This document shows, piece after piece, positions 3,279 to 14,666 of a DNA stretch of 64,000 bases (its first letter is position 1; each line of letters opens with the position of its first letter). Position numbers and translations under genes: made by a program. A model generated the notes under the pieces. The model was not told the origin of the DNA. It worked only from the letters and a program-made list of their open reading frames with translations, and did no database searches. This DNA comes from Patescibacteria group bacterium. Its GTDB lineage: Bacteria; Patescibacteriota; Patescibacteriia; UBA10025; JAHIVO01. The stretch is from NCBI GenBank assembly GCA_041660605.1, contig JBAZWB010000001.1:462879-526878 (forward strand), read 5' to 3'.

Positions 3279-4138
3279 CCCCAGATTTTATTGCCATTGG
3301 CTTAATTATTATTTTTATCGGAGTGGTGGTTTTTATTCTGGCGAAAAAATTTCCCGTCATTTCTTCCATTGATGTTACCGGCCTGGAAAGCCATAAGCAG
3401 GAGAAGCGGAAGAAGGATTTGATTTCCAGAAGGCTGCAGCGCAAATTAGGAATATTCAAGCTAAAACAGAAAATATCCGGTTCTAATGAAATTGCCGGCC
3501 AAGATTCAATTTTTAAACGTTTTCACGGATTTGTTAAAAAATTAGAAAACCAATATCAGGAAAAAATCCGGAAAGTAGAGCCTCTAGAAGAGGGAAGTGC
3601 TGATAAGAAAAAAATGGTTTTGATGCACGAGGCAAAAGAATTAGCGTCTCAGCAAAAATTCAAAGAAGCTGAAGAAAAATACATTGAAGTTATCAGCCTG
3701 GACAACAAGTATAATGAAGCATATGAGCATCTGGCGGAAGTTTATGTTGAACAGAAAGATTATACCCACGCAAAGGAAATTTATGAATTTCTCTTGAAAT
3801 CCAGCAGTACCGCAAAAACAGATGATGGATCCGGTGACGCAGGTACGGCCATAAGAGGGCAAGTAAATGCGGTTTCACTAAATAAGGAAGTAGCAGAATA
3901 TCATATCGGACTGGGGGAGGTATTTCTTTCTTTGGGGAACACTGCGGAGGCATGGAAAAACTTCGAAGAAGCAATAAAACTTGAACCGAATAATCCGCGA
4001 AATTTGGATTTAATAATTTCCGCGGCTATCCAGCTTAAAGACAAAAAATCAGCTTTGCAGTATATTGAAAAATTAAAAACAGCTAATTCGGAAAATGAAA
4101 AGCTTGATGATTTTAAAAGGCAAGCCGACGAATTATAA
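3275..4138 (+). CDS. membrane-anchored TPR-repeat protein
   Basis: N-terminal TM helix, then TPR-like repeats (YNEAYEHLAEVYVEQKDYTHAKEIYEFLL; AEAWKNFEEAIKLEPNNP); ATGA overlap with the upstream gene. Confidence 0.55.
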   Translation: MTPDFIAIGLIIIFIGVVVFILAKKFPVISSIDVTGLESHKQEKRKKDLISRRLQRKLGIFKLKQKISGSNEIAGQDSIFKRFHGFVKKLENQYQEKIRKVEPLEEGSADKKKMVLMHEAKELASQQKFKEAEEKYIEVISLDNKYNEAYEHLAEVYVEQKDYTHAKEIYEFLLKSSSTAKTDDGSGDAGTAIRGQVNAVSLNKEVAEYHIGLGEVFLSLGNTAEAWKNFEEAIKLEPNNPRNLDLIISAAIQLKDKKSALQYIEKLKTANSENEKLDDFKRQADEL

Positions 4139-4204
4139 ATTTTTGTTTAGTTTTTAAAATTTTTTACCTTATAGTCTACCCACCGGCAAGTAGGCTCAGC
4201 TTGC

Positions 4205-4225
4205 CCCGCCTAGTTTAGGCGGGGT
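4205..4225. repeat. REP-like GC-rich palindrome, empty form (CCCCGCCTA gtt TAGGCGGGG)
   Basis: Perfect 9-bp arms. The same arm sequence flanks tRNA-Thr(GGT) at 4396-4487. Confidence 0.5.
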
Positions 4226-4405
4226 GAAGTAGAACAACTCCGCGCGTGAATAGTTGTTACGGATTACGTGTCCGCAAACAAGTTACGGCCACTTCACCCT
4301 TCGCAACATTCCCGCTTTTTCCTAAAAATGCCAAGCATTTTTAGGAATTGATAATTTAAAATTATTTATAGTAGTTAATCTAGAGGCTCAGCTTGCCCCG
4401 CCTCA

Positions 4406-4478
4406 GCCGATGTAGCTCAGTTGGTAGAGCAACTCCATGGTAAGGAGTAGGTCGTCGGTTCAATTCCGACCATCGGCT
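4406..4478 (+). tRNA. tRNA-Thr (anticodon GGT)
   Basis: Manual fold: acceptor GCCGATG/CATCGGC, D arm GCTC-AGTTGGT-AGAGC, anticodon arm ACTCC-ATGGTAA-GGAGT, T arm GTCGG-TTCAATT-CCGAC. 73 nt, no encoded CCA. Confidence 0.85.
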
Positions 4479-4480
4479 GA

Positions 4481-4636
4481 GGCGGGGTGAAGTAGAGCAA
4501 CTCCAGGCAAAGTCCTATACCCAAAACGAAAAGCTGTGGTATGTGAGTAAGAAGATCAGGGTTCCCCCGCCACAATAAATTTAATCTATTTATGTAGGGC
4601 GGGGTCCGCCTTTGGCGGAAATTCCGACCATCGGCT
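4481..4636 (+). pseudogene. degenerate tRNA-Thr(GGT)-like duplicate
   Basis: Keeps ...AGAGCAACTCC (D arm 3' strand through anticodon-stem 5' strand) and ATTCCGACCATCGGCT (T loop through acceptor). About 115 nt of unrelated sequence replaces the anticodon region. Confidence 0.4.
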
Positions 4637-4824
4637 TAGAGCGGGTAATACTACGGTTCCAGGATCACAGGCTTGACTGTTTTATATAAAGATAGTAAAT
4701 TCATAAGTTATTTTACAATGGTTTGTTCGGATACTAGCACCGAATAGCCTCACCAGGTGGGCAGGTACCCCCGGCATGCGCCGGGGCAGGCTCCGTGGTC
4801 AGTCTCTGTATTAACAACTATAGA

Positions 4825-4884
4825 GAATTAATGATCAAGTCATATAAAGGCGGAGAAGCTTTTAAGAGGCTCATTAAGAAATAA
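4825..4884 (+). pseudogene. 3'-terminal remnant of a second GIY-YIG gene copy
   Basis: Encodes ...LMIKSYKGGEAFKRLIKK*, nearly identical to the last 19 codons of the 5070..5312 gene, directly after L copy A. Confidence 0.55.
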
Positions 4885-4967
4885 ATAACCTCACCAGGTG
4901 GGCAGGTACCCCCGGCATACGCCGGGGCAGGCTCCGTGGTTAATCTCTGTATTAACAACTATGAAGT

Positions 4968-5003
4968 GGGTGGGTACCGAAGTGGTCAAACGGGGCAGAC
5001 TGT
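4968..5003 (+). pseudogene. tRNA-Tyr 5' half (through anticodon position 34/35) followed by unrelated insert
   Basis: Identical to the first 36 nt of the intact tRNA-Tyr at 5396, then diverges at ...GACTGT|CCCGCC. The AAATCTGC motif of the anticodon loop/stem reappears 52 nt later. Confidence 0.5.
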
Positions 5004-5069
5004 CCCGCCACAAAAAATAATATTGAATGAAGGCGGGATGCCGCCAGAGGCGGCATAAATCTGCATAAT

Positions 5070-5312
5070 ATGTTTAATGTCTATATATTAATAAGTCTGA
5101 GTTCAAGTTATTATTATATTGGTCACACAGTAAATATAGTTAAAAGGCTTAAGCAGCATAATTCAGGACATGTAAGGTCTACAAAAAGAGGTATCCCTTG
5201 GATATTAGTTTATAAAGAAATATGTAAGACAAAATCGGAAGCATACAAAAGGGAATTATTAATTAAATCATATAAAGGCGGAGAAGCTTTTAAGAGGCTC
5301 ATTAAGAAATAA
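5070..5312 (+). CDS. small GIY-YIG nuclease family protein (Slx1/YhbQ-like URI domain)
   Basis: YILISLSSSYYYIGHTVNIVKRLKQHNSG...RGIPWILVYKE...KSEAYKRELLIK matches the GIY-YIG consensus (GIY, YIG, R, E, N). Confidence 0.8.
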   Translation: MFNVYILISLSSSYYYIGHTVNIVKRLKQHNSGHVRSTKRGIPWILVYKEICKTKSEAYKRELLIKSYKGGEAFKRLIKK

Positions 5313-5321
5313 ATAACCTCA

Positions 5322-5625
5322 CCAGGTGGGCAGGTACCCCCGGCATACGCCGGGGCAGGCTCCGTGGTTATTCTCTGTATTAACAACTATGAAGTGGGTG
5401 GGTACCGAAGTGGTCAAACGGGGCAGACTGTAAATCTGCTGGCTCCGGCCTACGTAGGTTCGAACCCTACCCCACCCACTTCATAGTTGTCCTTAAGGAG
5501 ACTGCTTGTGCCGCCGAATGGCGGCATAAATCTGCTGGCTCTCCTCGAGTCTGAGCGACGAGGTCGCTAGTCCTCGGAGTCGATGACCGGCCTACGTAGG
5601 TTCAAACCCTACCCTGCCCACCTGG
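5322..5625 (+). other. nested tRNA-like structure enclosing tRNA-Tyr, with co-varying acceptor strands
   Basis: 5' CCAGGTGGGCAGG-TA-CCCC(CGGCATACGCC)GGGG-CAG... at 5322-5360. 3' ...AAATCTGCTGGCTC[46-nt insert]CGGCC-TAC-GTAGG-TTCAAAC-CCTAC-CCTGCCC-A-CCTGG at 5528-5625. The 13-bp outer stem pairs perfectly. Confidence 0.25.
5396..5478 (+). tRNA. tRNA-Tyr (anticodon GTA), class II with long variable arm
   Basis: Acceptor GGGTGGG/CCCACCC, anticodon arm GCAGA-CTGTAAA-TCTGC, variable arm TGGCTCCGGCC, T arm GTAGG-TTCGAAC-CCTAC. Flanked by an 18-bp perfect extended stem. Confidence 0.85.
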
Positions 5626-5665
5626 AGAGAGTTATTCAGAAGTAGTTTGTCCCGCCATAGCTGCT

Positions 5666-5737
5666 GCCACCCTAGCTCAGTGGTAGAGCAACGGTTTTGT
5701 AAACCGTAGGTCGTCGGTTCAAGTCCGACGGGTGGCT
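5666..5737 (+). tRNA. tRNA-Thr (anticodon TGT)
   Basis: Acceptor GCCACCC/GGGTGGC, D arm GCTC-AGTGGT-AGAGC, anticodon arm ACGGT-TTTGTAA-ACCGT, T arm GTCGG-TTCAAGT-CCGAC. 72 nt; flanked by CCCGCCATAG / CTATGGCGGG. Confidence 0.85.
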
Positions 5738-5740
5738 ATG

Positions 5741-5808
5741 GCGGGATAAAGTAGAGCAACGGTTTTGTAAACCGTAGGTCGGGGGTTCGAATCCCTTCGC
5801 TGGCTCCA
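5741..5808 (+). pseudogene. chimeric tRNA pseudogene
   Basis: Copies tRNA-Thr(TGT) D-arm 3' strand through variable loop (AGAGCAACGGTTTTGTAAACCGTAGGTC), then a different T arm/acceptor ending in CCA. The 5' acceptor does not pair with the 3' strand. Confidence 0.35.
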
Positions 5809-5849
5809 GCCAAAATTATAAATAAATCATTAAAATGTAATAAAAATTT

Positions 5850-6005
5850 ATGTCACAGGACAATTTGTTAAAATTTGAATGCAAGGAATGCCATCACATC
5901 AATTACCATTCCAAAAAGAATAAAAAAATTCTGAAGAACAGGATTGAATTGAAAAAATTCTGCAAATGGTGCAAAAAACATACCTTGCATAAGGAAACGA
6001 AATAA
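5850..6005 (+). CDS. rpmG: 50S ribosomal protein L33
   Basis: 51-aa ORF below the ORF-track cutoff: [51 protein letters not shown]. Zinc-ribbon C..C...C..C and C-terminal HTLHKETK are typical L33. Confidence 0.85.
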
Positions 6006-6144
6006 TGTTGAAAACCCCTTTCAGAAAGTGGTTTTCAATGCTTTCCGCAAACTAGATGATTCGCTCGCCCTGAAATGTCATGCCAGAGGCAGATCCGTCT
6101 TTGGCGGAAATTCAGGGCTCGCGGTTGATAAAATAAATTTTCAG

Positions 6145-6219
6145 GGGAGCATAGTGAAATGGCTATCACAAGGGTCTCCAAAACCCTTATTCTAGGTTCG
6201 AGTCCTAGTGCTCCCGCCA
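6145..6219 (+). tRNA. tRNA-Trp (anticodon CCA), CCA end encoded
   Basis: Acceptor GGGAGCA/TGCTCCC, anticodon arm AGGGT-CTCCAAA-ACCCT, T arm CTAGG-TTCGAGT-CCTAG, then GCCA. Confidence 0.85.
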
Positions 6220-6516
6220 GTGTCCGCCAACGGGCGCTTAGAGTGGAAAACTTTTCTAAAGAAATTTATAGTTAGAATCATGTTCAGCAAGGACATGGTG
6301 TATTTTGCATTAAATATATATTTTCTTTAACATTAAAATGAGGGAGGAAACGACGAATTTGTCACAAAAGAAATAGACGTCGGATAAGGAGCGGGTTAAC
6401 CCCCCCCCTCTTTTTTTGTGCTCAGCGGAAAATTTTACCACCCACGAAGCCAAAAAATAAAAAACCAGGCAAAGGCCCGGTTTTCCAGTTAGAGTACAAT
6501 TCGCTAAAGGAACAGA

Positions 6517-6879
6517 TTATGCTGCTCGTGTCCCGAACCACGAAGGTGGTTCAACGGGCTTCTCTCTTTCGGCGTCTGGTGGCATCAGTTCCGGGCAGTG
6601 TTCATCGATGATCATTTCCAGTTCCACACGTCGTTTTTGCTCCCAGACGTAGCGCTGGAATAGCTCGTTTACATACCACTGAACCAGCTCACCCACGCGA
6701 GCTCCGAATCGACGAGCCAGCATGTCGGTGAATTTCCTGTTCAGGCGTTCTTTCCAGTTTCGGCAAACCTGAAGCGTGATATTCAACCGTCTCATTTTTG
6801 CCAGACCTTCTTCATTCATGAGGTACCTCATTTCCGTAGCAGTTGTGAAAACTACATTATTGTAACTTTCTGCTACCAC
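6517..6879 (-). CDS. hypothetical protein in a compositionally atypical (GC-richer) segment
   Basis: 120-aa ORF, basic and W/R-rich. Local sequence is visibly GC-richer than its flanks. Confidence 0.35.
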   Translation of the reverse strand: MVAESYNNVVFTTATEMRYLMNEEGLAKMRRLNITLQVCRNWKERLNRKFTDMLARRFGARVGELVQWYVNELFQRYVWEQKRRVELEMIIDEHCPELMPPDAEREKPVEPPSWFGTRAA

Positions 6880-7824: not shown

Positions 7825-8035
7825 AGCGATTACTTCATTACCACTCTGATTTAGTGCATAAAAGGCATTTGATACTTTTTTCTGTACTTTCTGTAACCCC
7901 GGTACCACGCGCTTCGCTTGGGTACGGGGCAGGCCAGAAAGTACCAAAGAGTTCCGTCCGTGCTGCGTAATCTTGAAAATTGGGCTCATCATCGCTATCG
8001 ACCCACAACCGCTTCGCTTGAGTGGGCTCGATTCC

Positions 8036-8053
8036 CCGCCCATGGGCGGGGAT
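8036..8053. repeat. REP-like perfect palindrome CCCCGCCCATGGGCGGGG
   Basis: 18-nt perfect palindrome of the same CCCCGCC/GGCGGGG family. Nearby direct repeats CGCTTCGCTTGGGTAC / CGCTTCGCTTGAGTGGGC. Confidence 0.5.
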
Positions 8054-8272
8054 CGCTCCTCTTCACTCCAATTTTACTACGATTACTCCGCAATGGGCGG
8101 GTTCAATAATGATGCAATTAAAATCTGGTTTCAATGCCATTAAAATTTTTTGTCGATTAGTTTTTCAAATTACCAATCGAGAAAATAAAAGTTATTTGCC
8201 TTTTTTATTTAGATGAGAGACAATTAATTTATAAATAACTAATCATTAAAGGGGTCGAAGGGGGAAATCATT

Positions 8273-13871: not shown

Positions 13872-14666
13872 ATGGACAACATACTTGAGCCAAAAACAGA
13901 AGACCGCCGTTTTATCAAGTTGCGGCGTTTTAATTTAATAATGGCGGTTTTGCATTTTGTCCAGGGAATCGTCATGCTGGTTTTAAGCACGGATTTTTCC
14001 CTGCCAGTCACCTCCGCTTTTCTCAAATTTAATACTGCCTCGCAGGCACTCCAGCCAAGTTTGCACACACTATTTAATCTGCGCATCGGGCCATTAGTGG
14101 CTGGATTTCTTTTTATCTCGGCTTTGGCTCACGCCCTGATTTCAATCTGCCCTGGCATTAACCGGTGGTATAATCGCAATTTAGCCAAAGGCATTAATCT
14201 GGCCCGCTGGATGGAATACGCATTCAGTTCTTCACTGATGATCGTTGTCATCGCCATGCTGGTGGGCATTTATGACATAGTCAGTTTGTTGGCGATATTT
14301 TTCCTAAACGCCATGATGATATTATTCGGCTGGATAATGGAAGTGCATAACCAGACCACCCAAAAGACCAACTGGATCTCGTTTTGGTTCGGTAGCCTGG
14401 CCGGGTTTATTACCTGGGTGGCTGTGGCCATTTATTTATTCGGTTCCGGCGAGCCGGGGATGAGAGCACCGACGTTTGTCTATTGGATTTATTTTTCCAT
14501 ATTCCTGTTTTTCAACTGTTTTGCCATTAACATGATTTTGCAGTATAAGAAAGCGGGTAAGTGGCGGGATTACCTTTACGGCGAACGAGCTTATATCATC
14601 CTCAGCCTGGTCGCCAAGTCATTACTGGCCTGGCAGGTTTTTTTCGGCACTTTGCGGCCGGTTTGA
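13872..14666 (+). CDS. heliorhodopsin
   Basis: 7-TM protein collinear with HeR 48C12: RWMEYAFSSSLMIVVIA, AIFFLNAMMILFGW, FWFGSLAGFITW, GERAYIILSLVAKSLLAWQVFFGTL, including the TM7 lysine. Confidence 0.85.
   Translation: MDNILEPKTEDRRFIKLRRFNLIMAVLHFVQGIVMLVLSTDFSLPVTSAFLKFNTASQALQPSLHTLFNLRIGPLVAGFLFISALAHALISICPGINRWYNRNLAKGINLARWMEYAFSSSLMIVVIAMLVGIYDIVSLLAIFFLNAMMILFGWIMEVHNQTTQKTNWISFWFGSLAGFITWVAVAIYLFGSGEPGMRAPTFVYWIYFSIFLFFNCFAINMILQYKKAGKWRDYLYGERAYIILSLVAKSLLAWQVFFGTLRPV

Follow-up and report, generated by a model that had tools for sequence, protein, structure and literature searches.

GIY-YIG nuclease genes are common passengers of introns, and proteins of the Slx1/UPF0213 type, which are small and consist of a GIY-YIG domain alone, occur widely, their function in bacteria being unsettled. 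Two further kinds of agent are associated with tRNA genes, namely SegB, a phage enzyme of ~200 aa that includes a DNA-binding part, and integrative elements, which encode integrases and as a rule leave the 3' part of the tRNA duplicated. The Slx1/UPF0213 branch is usually taken as cellular (PMC1564403), and Patescibacteria have been inferred in an independent study to be the source of transferred GIY-YIG domain genes (PMC12455944); some tRNAs of this phylum, one of them a tRNA-Tyr, contain group I introns at position 35/36 (PMC13011429). In fungal mitochondria, endonuclease ORFs set in or against essential genes have been described as mORFs (PMC3630166), and mobile double-hairpin elements and GC clusters are known from mitochondria as well (PMC2800124). 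The searchable literature yielded such analogues, and no description of a tRNA-nested GIY-YIG cassette.

The DNA analyzed here is a 64 kb stretch (the window; all features below lie on its + strand) from a member of the Patescibacteria (CPR) with a genome of ~1 Mb. An earlier note had read this locus as a GIY-YIG-bearing, intron-like or homing element at the tRNA-Tyr anticodon that was afterward duplicated in tandem. The tie between the GIY-YIG gene and the anticodon break is real, as is the tandem duplication. This tie is seen again across many unrelated genomes, where other tRNAs are involved too, as would suit a homing-type or selfish element directed at tRNA genes; the intron part of the proposal fails. 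We favor, with a probability of roughly 0.6, the view that the tRNA cluster has been colonized by a selfish, homing-like cassette built around a minimal (80-aa) Slx1/UPF0213-type GIY-YIG gene and spreading or duplicating by break-induced recombination between tRNA copies, the target of the nuclease and the role of the hairpins being presumptive.

Anatomy of the tRNA-Tyr locus and its neighbors

Three copies of a repeat, designated L, are present as first reported, at 4743-4821 (A), 4884-4962 (B), and 5312-5390 (C), and are 95% identical; B and C extend to 4967 and 5395, respectively. Direct and inverted repeat comparison reveals in the L element the 5' half of an older tRNA-Tyr, in whose anticodon loop the intact gene now lies, joined to the left arm of an inverted repeat. 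This arm is partial in copy A and complete in copies B (TCTCTGTATTAACAACTATGAAGT, 4944-4967) and C (5372-5395). In copy A the acceptor strand reads GGGCAGG and a hairpin, CCCCCGGCATGCGCCGGGG, takes the place of the D-loop, while in copy C GGGCAGG starts at 5328, 15 nt past the ORF stop.

What follows each copy also agrees with the original description. Copy A is succeeded by nothing but the tail of a GIY-YIG gene (4822-4884), comprising the last 20 codons (4822-4881), with 95% amino acid identity to residues 61-80 (tblastn, E = 4e-8), and the stop codon; this is a pseudogene fragment of an older repeat unit, and since L copy A abuts it directly, an internal deletion appears to have taken out the rest of unit A. 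Copy B is followed by positions 1-36 of tRNA-Tyr (4968-5003), 100% identical to 5396-5431 (blastn, E = 2e-16), a disabled or ghost tRNA whose end falls within the anticodon. Next come a double-hairpin module (5004-5056), which measures 53 nt and not the 52 nt initially counted, then AAATCTGC (5057-5064), which completes the anticodon loop and provides the 3' strand of its stem, and finally ATAAT and the intact nuclease gene of 80 codons (5070-5312). When the insert is taken out, GCAGACTGTAAATCTGC is regenerated exactly. As had been stated, the position of the break is 34/35 or 35/36, the two being indistinguishable because of a shared T, and relatives favor 34/35, between G and TAAA. Copy C leads into the intact, presumably functional tRNA-Tyr(GTA) at 5396-5479, which is called by both ARAGORN and Rfam (60.5 bits). 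In all, a unit of 187 nt is duplicated (4817-5003 matching 5245-5431 at 96% identity) with a period of 428 nt.

The acceptor stem of the intact tRNA-Tyr(GTA) is prolonged by flanking inverted repeats of 24 nt, the right arm of which, ACTTCATAGTTGTCCTTAAGGAGA (5478-5501), opens a junction region (5478-5527) that continues through a short spacer into hairpin 2 of the module, GCCGCCgaatGGCGGC, with AT (5510-5527); the final 16 nt of this region match 5049-5064 exactly. The 3' part of the older tRNA-Tyr then resumes (5528-5629), consisting of AAATCTGCTGGCTC (5528-5541), a 45-nt insert in the variable arm (5542-5586), and CCGGCC...CCTGCCCACC (5587-5622), after which TGGAGAG pairs with the start of L. 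Upon reassembly, the older pieces are collinear with the intact gene and the acceptor-stem changes between the two are compensatory, which argues that the resident tRNA-Tyr was replaced by a foreign or variant one. A scan for promoters and terminators gave no signal above that of shuffled sequence; upstream of L copy A, at 4673-4701, there is one TTGACT-17-TAAATT site.

Similar nesting is observed in the adjoining tRNA-Thr genes. A relic devoid of both ORF and tRNA (4192-4244) comprises tRNA-Thr D-arm halves, AGGCTCAGCTTG ... TGAAGTAGAACAACTCC, around an "empty" GC hairpin, CCCCGCCtagtttaGGCGGGG, and is 96% identical to the flanks of a filled copy at 4384-4507. In the latter, the intact tRNA-Thr(GGT) (4405-4479) occupies the loop of a GC hairpin whose arms, CCCCGCCTCA (4396-4405) and TGAGGCGGGG (4478-4487), belong to an inverted repeat of 17 nt with 100% complementarity, and this hairpin in turn breaks the D-loop of an older tRNA-Thr copy (AGGCTCAGCTTG ... 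TGAAGTAGAGCAACTCC). A double-hairpin module, CCCCCGCC..GGGCGGGG then TCCGCCtttgGCGGA, sits in the T-loop of the older tRNA-Thr(GGT) (4564-4636) and is followed by that gene's 3' end, AATTCCGACCATCGGCT (4620-4636). In the tRNA-Thr(TGT) region (5650-5808), the intact gene (5666-5737) lies between the hairpin arms TCCCGCCATAGC and GCTATGGCGGGA, and 5750-5808 is the 3' part of an older tRNA-Thr(TGT), from position 17 to CCA, whose T-arm and acceptor strand differ from those of the intact gene. Upstream of tRNA-Trp, TCCGTCtttgGCGGA forms another such hairpin, with AATTC after it (6094-6108). An intact tRNA inside the hairpin loop of an older copy is thus seen for both Thr genes and for Tyr here, and also at locus L009 of another genome.

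The hairpin module, the nuclease, and the cassette family

Hairpin 1 of the 53-nt module consists of CCCGCC, an AT-rich loop of 22 nt, and GGCGGG, and hairpin 2 is GCCGCCagaGGCGGC, with AT at the end; the module fits the family consensus CC(A)CCGCC-N-GGCGGGG-T-GCCGCC-N3-GGCGGC-A and folds into a three-way junction (z = -2.9). Hammerhead and HDV-like ribozymes were considered as identities for this junction and dismissed, as their core motifs misfit when the layouts are compared by eye, and a Chi-like function of the GGCGG motifs was set aside for lack of support. The insert had been described as containing REP sequences, a label that the distribution of the hairpins does not bear out. The window holds four perfect CCGCC-N3-5-GGCGG hairpins, at 4606, 5041, 5511, and 8036, so that three of the four belong to the tRNA cluster. 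Across 766 kb there are 225, against a roughly estimated chance expectation of fewer than one, and 191 of them (85%) lie at most 400 nt from a tRNA, a zone that makes up 19% of the bases searched; far from being dispersed through the genome, the hairpins are nearly all confined to tRNA loci.

Insert boundaries, as set by comparing ghost with intact tRNA, are clean, with neither target duplication nor base loss; in one example, exactly 37 nt separate A14 from G15. Hairpins are also nested in the loops of other hairpins, and their stems are invariant and their loops freely variable. Single stem mispairs are of the G-U type in 30 cases and of the A-C type in 25, and with the two about equally common this test does not tell an RNA role of the hairpins from a DNA role. 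A search of IMG/VR with the module returned no match.

The 80-aa protein passes the Pfam GIY-YIG model (PF01541; 64.2 bits, E = 1.4e-17, the cut-off being 22.6), with residues 2-67 forming the catalytic domain. In an alignment of 44 sequences Y16, G18, R26, H30, E50, R61, and E62 are invariant and Y5 is nearly so; by analogy, the conserved Tyr (of GIY and YIG), Gly, Arg, His, and Glu would be the catalytic residues, and from the retention of the YIG Tyr and Gly together with Arg, His, and Glu the protein looks active. Profile comparison with PDB places it nearest to 1zg2 (BH0048; 1.3e-12) and 1ywl (EF2693; 9e-10), followed by Slx1 (2.6e-5 to 2.5e-4). Judged by these similarities, it is a minimal, stand-alone protein of the Slx1/UPF0213 (YhbQ-like) type without an auxiliary domain, and is not of the I-TevI/Seg type, the C-terminal DNA-binding domain of the latter being absent from a chain of 80 aa. 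The group I intron endonuclease model TIGR01453 scores 16.2 bits, below its cut-off of 56, the PHROGs "homing endonuclease" family gives only a match at E = 0.007, and NCBIfam, PADLOC, and PHROGs as a whole provide sub-threshold matches only; no match exists among 50,697 phage records. Grouping of the protein with Slx1/YhbQ, with no connection to tRNA loci, had been named among the outcomes that would together overturn the proposal of an intron-like or homing element. On this point the answer is divided: the grouping is indeed with Slx1/YhbQ (UPF0213) and not with intron or Seg enzymes, and yet the gene is tightly linked to tRNAs.

This linkage is evident from 80 homologous loci of other genomes, which were found via the protein alone and represent a sample close to the window protein from a family of 6,464 cluster representatives (E <= 1e-10). 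In 58 of the 80, the start of a tRNA on the same strand falls between -30 and +80 nt (median 9) relative to where the GIY-YIG match ends, a placement expected for ~3% of loci by a rough estimate from random positioning within the same loci; among the rest, 10 have a tRNA just upstream and 4 run off the contig end. The GC hairpin motif occurs no more than 110 nt upstream of the ATG in 70 of the 80 loci, and 38 of the 58 contain an exact copy, at least 12 nt long, of the 5' end of the downstream tRNA, which in 36 of these 38 runs straight into CCACCGCC, TCCCGCC, or CCCCGCC. The ghost end point varies among loci, break positions clustering in the D-loop (12-22) and at the anticodon (34/35). Similarly, a reverse search recovered 34 exact module matches in metagenomes: 15 are arranged as ghost, module, 13-25 nt, GIY-YIG ORF, and tRNA-Tyr; ~10 as ORF, tRNA-Tyr, and a 3' ghost bearing the module; and the remainder are tRNA-Thr ghosts with no ORF nearby.

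The layout of unit B is the standard layout of this large nuclease-cassette family in bacterial tRNA loci. Specifically, at the upstream region proper to a tRNA gene there is a disabled 5' part of that gene; a double hairpin lies in the loop of the disabled copy (the anticodon loop here, the D-loop or T-loop elsewhere); and a few more tRNA bases, the nuclease ORF, and, within a few bases of its stop, an intact copy of the same tRNA complete the cassette. The family, which is apparently undescribed so far, has Ser, Tyr, Pro, Gly, Thr, Gln, Cys, and Glu tRNAs as partners and extends over several phyla, with more than one copy per genome, truncated copies, frequent contig ends, tandem arrays (L005, L006, L014, L039, L053), and sister loci without the ORF (L092, L093, L113). 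Protein clades track tRNA identity, and an Ignavibacteria clade is nested among CPR sequences in a weakly resolved tree. The position Thr-[ORF]-Tyr-Thr-Trp recurs in many CPR lineages. Ghost and intact gene are 100% identical at most other loci, whereas the old and new tRNA-Tyr of the window differ in the acceptor stem. As for an empty site in a close relative, a metagenome search with the upstream TPR protein found no relative, and a search with L33 returned the same genome only.

A proposed selfish cassette weighed against other explanations

As a selfish element, the cassette might operate as follows. Transcription of the ORF would probably begin at the tRNA promoter and run through the ghost leader, the transcript being freed by processing of the downstream tRNA. 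The nuclease could cut DNA in or beside tRNA genes or their hairpins, and the break would be repaired by recombination between tRNA copies, with left homology supplied by the ghost and right homology by the intact tRNA, such that the hairpin module and ORF are copied into a tRNA gene and one working tRNA is always left. Since the restored tRNA would again be a substrate, repeated events or unequal exchange could build tandem arrays, exactly one intact copy presumably being kept by selection. In the window, the anatomy suggests that the ORF once lay upstream of the old tRNA-Tyr; that an insertion with a different, complete tRNA-Tyr disrupted the anticodon of the old gene; that the unit composed of ORF, old 5' half (L), and nt 1-44 of the new tRNA was duplicated with the 428-nt period; and that the truncated copy came to bear the hairpin module and the oldest unit (A) suffered its internal deletion.

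The varied tRNA partners, the multi-copy, tandem, and truncated loci, the ORF-less sisters, and the nested Ignavibacteria clade lend support to a selfish or mobile character. Against it, classical sequence-specific homing is hard to picture for an 80-aa protein without a DNA-binding domain, and the intact tRNA beside the ORF is identical to the presumed target, which poses a problem of self-immunity. The shared Thr-[ORF]-Tyr-Thr-Trp position could be explained no less well by old vertical inheritance with losses than by repeated homing, and the intact Thr and Tyr genes lying in hairpin loops within older copies, here and at L009, sit awkwardly with the selfish-cassette view. A bolder form of the hypothesis, which we advance tentatively as possible and do not expect to be right, is that nuclease and GC double hairpin together constitute a new, structure-guided class of mobile DNA: extruded hairpins or cloverleaf-like folds of tRNA genes would be recognized in place of sequence, with clean insertion into D, anticodon, and T loops and into the loops of earlier hairpins, and the disrupted tRNA would always be duplicated or replaced, leaving the host dependent on the cassette copy.

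Alternatively, the hairpins themselves may be the mobile agent, small non-autonomous palindromic elements that enter the loops of structured genes, with the GIY-YIG protein as a trans-acting enzyme (again a new structure-guided mechanism) or as a passenger unconnected with them, or as a host defense where tRNA loci are damaged. Clean insertion into several tRNA loops without target duplication, the nesting of hairpin in hairpin, conserved stems with free loops, the many module-bearing tRNA ghosts without a nearby ORF, the structure-specific nucleases among the nearest solved relatives, and the mitochondrial precedents mentioned above all point this way. However, the hairpins are almost limited to tRNA loci, and in 70 of 80 loci they are tightly tied to where the ORF starts, a distribution unlike that of dispersed REP or MITE families. 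To our knowledge, moreover, no transposition chemistry has been attributed to a lone GIY-YIG domain. We regard this alternative as unlikely, and it overlaps with the selfish-cassette explanation without excluding it. Somewhat less likely again is that the protein is a host factor co-transcribed with tRNAs, serving for example in the repair or stability of heavily transcribed tRNA genes, with the hairpins acting as leader or processing signals and the tRNA fragments arising as by-products of slippage. Such a role would suit the cellular standing of its branch (PMC1564403), the Thr-Tyr position kept across many CPR lineages, and the good conservation of the ORF; it accounts poorly for the wide range of partner tRNAs, the multiple, tandem, and truncated copies and ORF-less sister loci spread over several phyla, the systematic inactivation of spare tRNA copies by hairpins that are not placed in ordinary leaders, and the apparent replacement of the resident tRNA-Tyr by a different one.

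The remaining readings fare worse. Copy B is not a group I intron or any other detectable intron: at E <= 1, Rfam finds four tRNAs and chance matches across 3800-6800, and no intron (group I or group II), ribozyme, or leader family, and ARAGORN with introns allowed finds no interrupted tRNA-Tyr. The break at 34/35 or 35/36 would suit an RNA-spliced anticodon-loop intron with a homing endonuclease gene, carried by copy B or by B and C together, as it matches the 35/36 site of Patescibacteria group I introns (PMC13011429), and 4968-5003 plus 5432-5479 formally yield a mature tRNA-Tyr. Nevertheless, the insert is two plain hairpins followed by eight tRNA bases and the ORF; as the tRNA ends after AAATCTGC, where the ORF begins, copy B has no 3' exon of its own, and the would-be intron of the longer version includes the complete 5' half again, rendering splicing unnecessary. 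The low score with the intron endonuclease model, the variable ghost ends, and the D-loop breaks elsewhere likewise count against splicing, which we judge very improbable even with GIY-YIG genes being such frequent intron passengers. The suspicion that the tandem structure is a short-read assembly artefact across repeats, which we rate as slighter still, draws on the array being known from a single MEGAHIT-style short-read contig, with an NCBI copy (L082) that is 100% identical and may not be independent, and on a Logan contig that ends within the neighboring Thr repeat; the copies are nevertheless 4-5% apart, every junction is unique, and the same layout and tandem arrays appear in dozens of independent assemblies, including one complete chromosome (L052, CP181398). 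A currently split tRNA gene had also been suggested. In this or a permuted form, with halves joined in trans as in some archaea, the idea could invoke a 5' half that ends in the anticodon loop and continues into GC-rich sequence capable of pairing, together with a separate 3' half preceded by a similar hairpin (5510-5622). The tRNA-Tyr is present intact as well, though, following copy B; the 5' and 3' fragments derive from two versions of tRNA-Tyr whose acceptor strands do not match, and the 3' fragment has a further insert of 45 nt. The archaeal splicing endonuclease system is, as far as we know, absent from bacteria, and this idea is scarcely credible. Two other candidates were rejected: integrase-type att duplication, there being no recombinase and the duplicated half of the tRNA being the wrong one, and retro-insertion of tRNA cDNA, the encoded CCA being inconsistent between copies.

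If the preferred selfish-cassette explanation is correct, the tRNA linkage, ghost halves, and double hairpin of the 80-member sample would suggest a selfish lifestyle for at least a large subfamily of Slx1/UPF0213-type proteins, and tRNA genes and hairpins offer concrete substrates for the biochemistry of small GIY-YIG proteins. A mobile element would have colonized a single-copy, essential tRNA gene of a tiny genome without recourse to splicing, by disrupting one copy and supplying another, and the cassette may account in part for how tRNA genes are turned over and horizontally replaced in Patescibacteria and Bacteroidota. There are practical consequences as well, in that ghost tRNAs in which a hairpin stands in for the D-arm are annotated as genuine tRNAs (L039, L053), gene callers extend the ORF through the hairpins, and contigs break at cassette loci.

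Comparison with described systems

Several described systems share individual features with the cassette. Patescibacteria tRNA group I introns occur in the same phylum and at the same tRNA site (34-36), are 184-894 bp long, and encode endonucleases of the HNH, LAGLIDADG, or PD-(D/E)XK type (PMC13011429); the cassette, in contrast, shows neither an intron RNA fold nor signs of splicing, and its ORF is not followed by a 3' exon. The tRNA-duplicating integrative elements are prophage-derived and 9-23 kb in size (10.1101/2022.07.05.498093), whereas the cassette insert is ~330 bp, lacks a recombinase, and is accompanied by a partial tRNA copy, in most cases of the 5' part, which a hairpin module divides. 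The double-hairpin elements, repetitive hairpin-forming elements, and GC clusters of mitochondria resemble the module in being short and GC-rich, with one or two hairpins, conserved stems, and variable loops, and in entering structured RNA genes without target duplication; they are dispersed in intergenic regions and rRNA genes and have no known dedicated enzyme, whereas the present modules hardly occur outside spare tRNA copies and go together with a nuclease gene (PMC2800124).

With SegB of the T4/T6 tRNA cluster (PMC2330249; PMC13096335), the cassette shares a GIY-YIG gene located among tRNA genes and a statistical link to tRNAs. SegB, moreover, drives tandem amplification of tRNA-Tyr plus a truncated nuclease gene, in a unit of 718 bp in T6 as compared with 428 bp here. 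The cassette family differs in being cellular, with no counterpart in the phage records searched, in belonging to the Slx1/UPF0213 branch and having no extra domain, and in its company of ghost tRNA halves and hairpin modules.

The mORFs of fungal mitochondria (Allomyces atp6; Glomus atp6, atp9, cox2, and nad3) offer a further parallel, as an endonuclease ORF, GIY-YIG in one reported case, lies in or against an essential gene, a partial replacement copy of the gene is supplied, and the native part is left as a pseudogene, such that splicing is unneeded (PMC3630166). In the cassette loci, that of the window included, the endonuclease ORF likewise abuts its presumed target gene and a duplicated part of it, one copy being non-functional; in the window the replacement tRNA-Tyr differs from the displaced one, which may parallel the foreign C-termini conferred by mORFs. 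Unlike mORFs, which affect mitochondrial protein genes, the cassette would target bacterial tRNA genes. What it duplicates is mostly the 5' part, as a rule without differences from the working gene; its nuclease is a minimal Slx1-like domain of 80 aa, and the disabled copy is always broken up by a conserved double hairpin.

A GIY-YIG gene among tandem units of a tRNA cluster

The window is part of a 960-kb contig from a Patescibacteria (CPR) metagenome-assembled genome, and at 4190-6240 it contains a common tRNA cluster, Thr(GGT) - Tyr(GTA) - Thr(TGT) - rpmG - Trp(CCA). Within this cluster lie three copies of a repeat, the L element (A, 4743-4821; B, 4884-4967; C, 5312-5395), that are 95% identical to one another. 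The earlier note's observation from sequence alone is confirmed: copy A is followed by the last 20 codons of a GIY-YIG gene, copy B by 36 nt that match the beginning of tRNA-Tyr exactly, an insert, AAATCTGC and an intact 80-aa GIY-YIG ORF (5070-5312, forward strand), and copy C by an intact tRNA-Tyr. The insert in unit B is present as described, though it measures 53 nt (5004-5056) rather than 52 nt. Specifically, the duplicated unit is 4817-5003, repeated at 5245-5431 with 96% identity and a period of 428 nt, which corrects the earlier description of the repeat.

Three explanations had been offered for this arrangement. That of an intron-like element is rejected on the grounds that no intron or ribozyme family matches across 3800-6800 (Rfam at E <= 1), that ARAGORN reports no interrupted tRNA-Tyr even when introns are permitted, and that copy B is without a 3' exon. 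The proposal that tRNA-Tyr is currently a split gene is likewise rejected, an intact tRNA-Tyr being present after copy C. The remaining suggestion, a homing element that targets the tRNA anticodon and was subsequently duplicated in tandem, is supported in outline by the comparative evidence.

A conserved cassette at tRNA genes of other genomes

Comparison with homologous loci demonstrates that the cassette is conserved: a small nuclease gene lies within a tRNA transcription unit, between a hairpin-disabled and an intact copy of the tRNA. The cassettes form a family whose tRNA hosts vary and whose members occur in multiple and in tandem copies, some of them truncated; relics that lack the ORF also exist. 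Eighty loci from species-representative genomes were fetched by protein alone and then scanned for tRNAs. At 58 of the 80, a same-strand tRNA starts -30 to +80 nt (median 9) from the end of the protein match, where random placement in the same tRNA-rich loci would, by rough estimate, yield a downstream tRNA at ~3%; a tRNA lies immediately upstream at 10 further loci, and 4 further loci meet a contig edge. Ser and Tyr predominate among the partner tRNAs, with Pro, Gly, Thr, Gln, Cys and Glu also represented. A GC hairpin is found within 110 nt upstream of the ATG at 70/80 loci, and an exact copy (at least 12 nt) of the partner tRNA 5' end precedes the ORF at 38/58, passing directly into CCACCGCC, TCCCGCC or CCCCGCC in 36 of these 38. 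Such disabled partial copies, or ghosts, break at positions 12-22 (D-loop), 34/35 (anticodon) or 27-30. In the typical tRNA-Tyr arrangement, a ghost ending in GACTG is followed by a GC-rich double hairpin, the module (CCACCGCC-NNN-GGCGGGG-T-GCCGCC-NNN-GGCGGC-A), then by TAAATC, with the ATG 13-25 nt on. Unit B fits this arrangement and is thus a standard cassette whose first hairpin has a long AT-rich loop.

In a reverse test, metagenome contigs searched with the module alone yielded 34 instances: 15 consist of ghost, module, ORF and tRNA-Tyr, ~10 of ORF, tRNA-Tyr, spacer and a module-bearing 3' ghost, and the remainder are ghosts of tRNA-Thr(TGT) that have no ORF in their vicinity. The full form, present in loci L098, L090 and L085, comprises tRNA positions 1-34, module and 35-48, then the ORF, the intact tRNA, a spacer, and positions 28-34, module and 35-76. 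Thr-Tyr loci without the ORF also occur (L092, L093, L113).

Further loci display additional arrangements. In Bacteroidales, GIY-YIG ORFs alternate in arrays with 'tRNA-Pro' copies (L039, 3872-4675; L053, 52-473; L066, 3867-4305), and in L039 and L053 these have the D-arm swapped for a CCCCGCC-NNN-GGCGG hairpin of equal length; since ARAGORN still accepts these copies as tRNAs, annotation may treat them as real tRNA genes. In another Parcubacteria genome (L009, 3440-3690 and 4440-4760), intact tRNA-Thr(GGT) and tRNA-Thr(TGT) lie within hairpins by which older, almost complete copies are interrupted, and the outer Thr(GGT), minus two inserts, would be a perfect tRNA except for one acceptor mismatch. 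An independent assembly of the same organism as the window (L084, Logan contig SRR6484324_597948), whose position 1 is window position 5759, has its break right within the segment of tRNA-Thr(TGT) that is duplicated; contig ends coincide with many loci of the family, and the cassettes fragment short-read assemblies.

Nested tRNA genes and their hairpins

The L element is itself a tRNA fragment that opens with GGGCAGG, an acceptor strand from an older tRNA-Tyr; the partner of this strand, CCTGCCC, lies at 5613-5619 within a 3' fragment (5587-5622; inverted repeats I5-I7). When joined, 5328-5364, 5527-5541 and 5587-5622 are collinear with the intact tRNA-Tyr, and the old and intact acceptor stems (GGGCAGG/CCTGCCC versus GGGTGGG/CCCACCC) differ by compensatory changes. 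Because the pieces are collinear and their acceptor strands paired, the intact tRNA-Tyr must sit within the anticodon loop of a disabled tRNA-Tyr gene of older date, the D-loop of which is swapped for a GC hairpin of equal length; 24-nt inverted repeats stand on either side of the intact gene, and a GC hairpin follows. These alignments indicate that a resident tRNA-Tyr has been replaced in the window by a different one. Both tRNA-Thr genes are similarly built, each intact gene standing between the arms of a CCCCGCC...GGCGGGG hairpin that interrupts an older copy of that tRNA, and at 4192-4244 an 'empty' hairpin of this kind has the same flanks as the filled version. The 53-nt insert of unit B consists of two hairpins, and this two-hairpin unit recurs in the old tRNA-Thr(GGT), where it occupies the T-loop (4564-4619).

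Comparison of ghosts with intact tRNAs gives exact insert boundaries (e.g., 37 nt between A14 and G15) and reveals neither target duplication nor base loss. Hairpins within hairpin loops occur at L007, L021, L035 and L098. Module stems are nearly invariant and loops freely variable in an alignment partly gathered by exact pattern, the protein-found sequences showing the same behaviour. Perfect CCGCC-N3-5-GGCGG hairpins number 225 in 766 kb (chance expectation, roughly estimated, <1), and 85% of them are no more than 400 nt from a tRNA gene, in a zone that makes up 19% of the bases. The module has no match in IMG/VR.

Several other features were observed in the window. The variable arm of the old tRNA-Tyr carries a 45-nt insert (5542-5586, TCCTCGAGTCTGAGCGACGAGGTCGCTAGTCCTCGGAGTCGATGA) with its own inverted repeats and a sequence type unlike the CCGCC hairpins. 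Hairpins of the CCGCC type flank tRNA-Trp (6094-6108 and 6223-6236), and AATTC comes after the upstream one, just as it does in the T-loop ghost of tRNA-Thr. The fourth perfect GC hairpin of the window, CCGCCcatGGGCGG (8036-8049, intergenic 7825-8272), is preceded by T-loop-like GGGCTCGATTCC and may be a further tRNA ghost beyond the main cluster. At 34194-34229 lies a CCCGCC...GGCGGG hairpin of 36 nt whose loop is structured; no tRNA is called within ~28 kb of it, and it could be either a terminator or a palindrome that is unrelated. At 13872-14666 (forward strand), this ~1 Mb Patescibacteria genome encodes a heliorhodopsin of 264 aa (PF18761).

The nuclease, a proposed mechanism and known systems

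Relatives of the ORF are many, ~80 aa long and 50-69% identical, in Patescibacteria, Ignavibacteria, Bacteroidales, Armatimonadetes, Omnitrophica and others; a profile search at E <= 1e-10 gave 6,464 cluster representatives. Among proteins of solved structure, its closest relatives are those of UPF0213 (1zg2, 1ywl) and Slx1, a structure-specific nuclease. Of the refuting outcome named in the earlier note, the grouping with Slx1/YhbQ-type (UPF0213) proteins holds, but not the lack of connection to tRNA loci, given the tRNA linkage at 58/80. By sequence, the protein is assigned to the 'minimal' GIY-YIG branch described in PMC1564403. Against the group I intron endonuclease model it scores below the cut-off (16 bits versus 56); it has no match in phage records, and its 80 aa leave no room for a DNA-binding domain. 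In a tree weakly resolved for so short a protein, clades track tRNA identity and an Ignavibacteria clade is nested among CPR sequences; export of GIY-YIG domain genes from Patescibacteria has been inferred independently (PMC12455944). Some homologues of 205-214 aa, among P0118, P0119, P0110 and many profile-search proteins, carry two GIY-YIG domains and are read as fused tandem units, and many others have N-terminal extensions of 20-50 aa that run through the GC hairpins (e.g., the first 19 aa of P0110).

We propose that the nuclease would break DNA at tRNA genes or their hairpins, and that repair by recombination between tRNA copies would copy or duplicate the cassette. The ghost would supply homology and probably a promoter, while selection would keep one intact tRNA. 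The restored tRNA would be open to another hit, and arrays such as A-B-C in the window could thereby arise.

The element family is widespread and apparently undescribed, no published account of such a cassette having been found in the openly searchable literature. Phage SegB (PMC2330249; PMC13096335) resembles it in its tRNA link and in a tandem unit with a truncated nuclease gene, mitochondrial double-hairpin elements (PMC2800124) in their hairpins, and Patescibacteria tRNA group I introns (PMC13011429) in position within the tRNA. Closest in strategy are the mORFs of fungal mitochondria, each of which brings along a substitute end for the gene it invades (PMC3630166). Unlike all of these systems, the cassette joins ghost tRNA halves and a conserved double hairpin to a minimal Slx1-like nuclease, and it does so at tRNA loci of cellular genomes.
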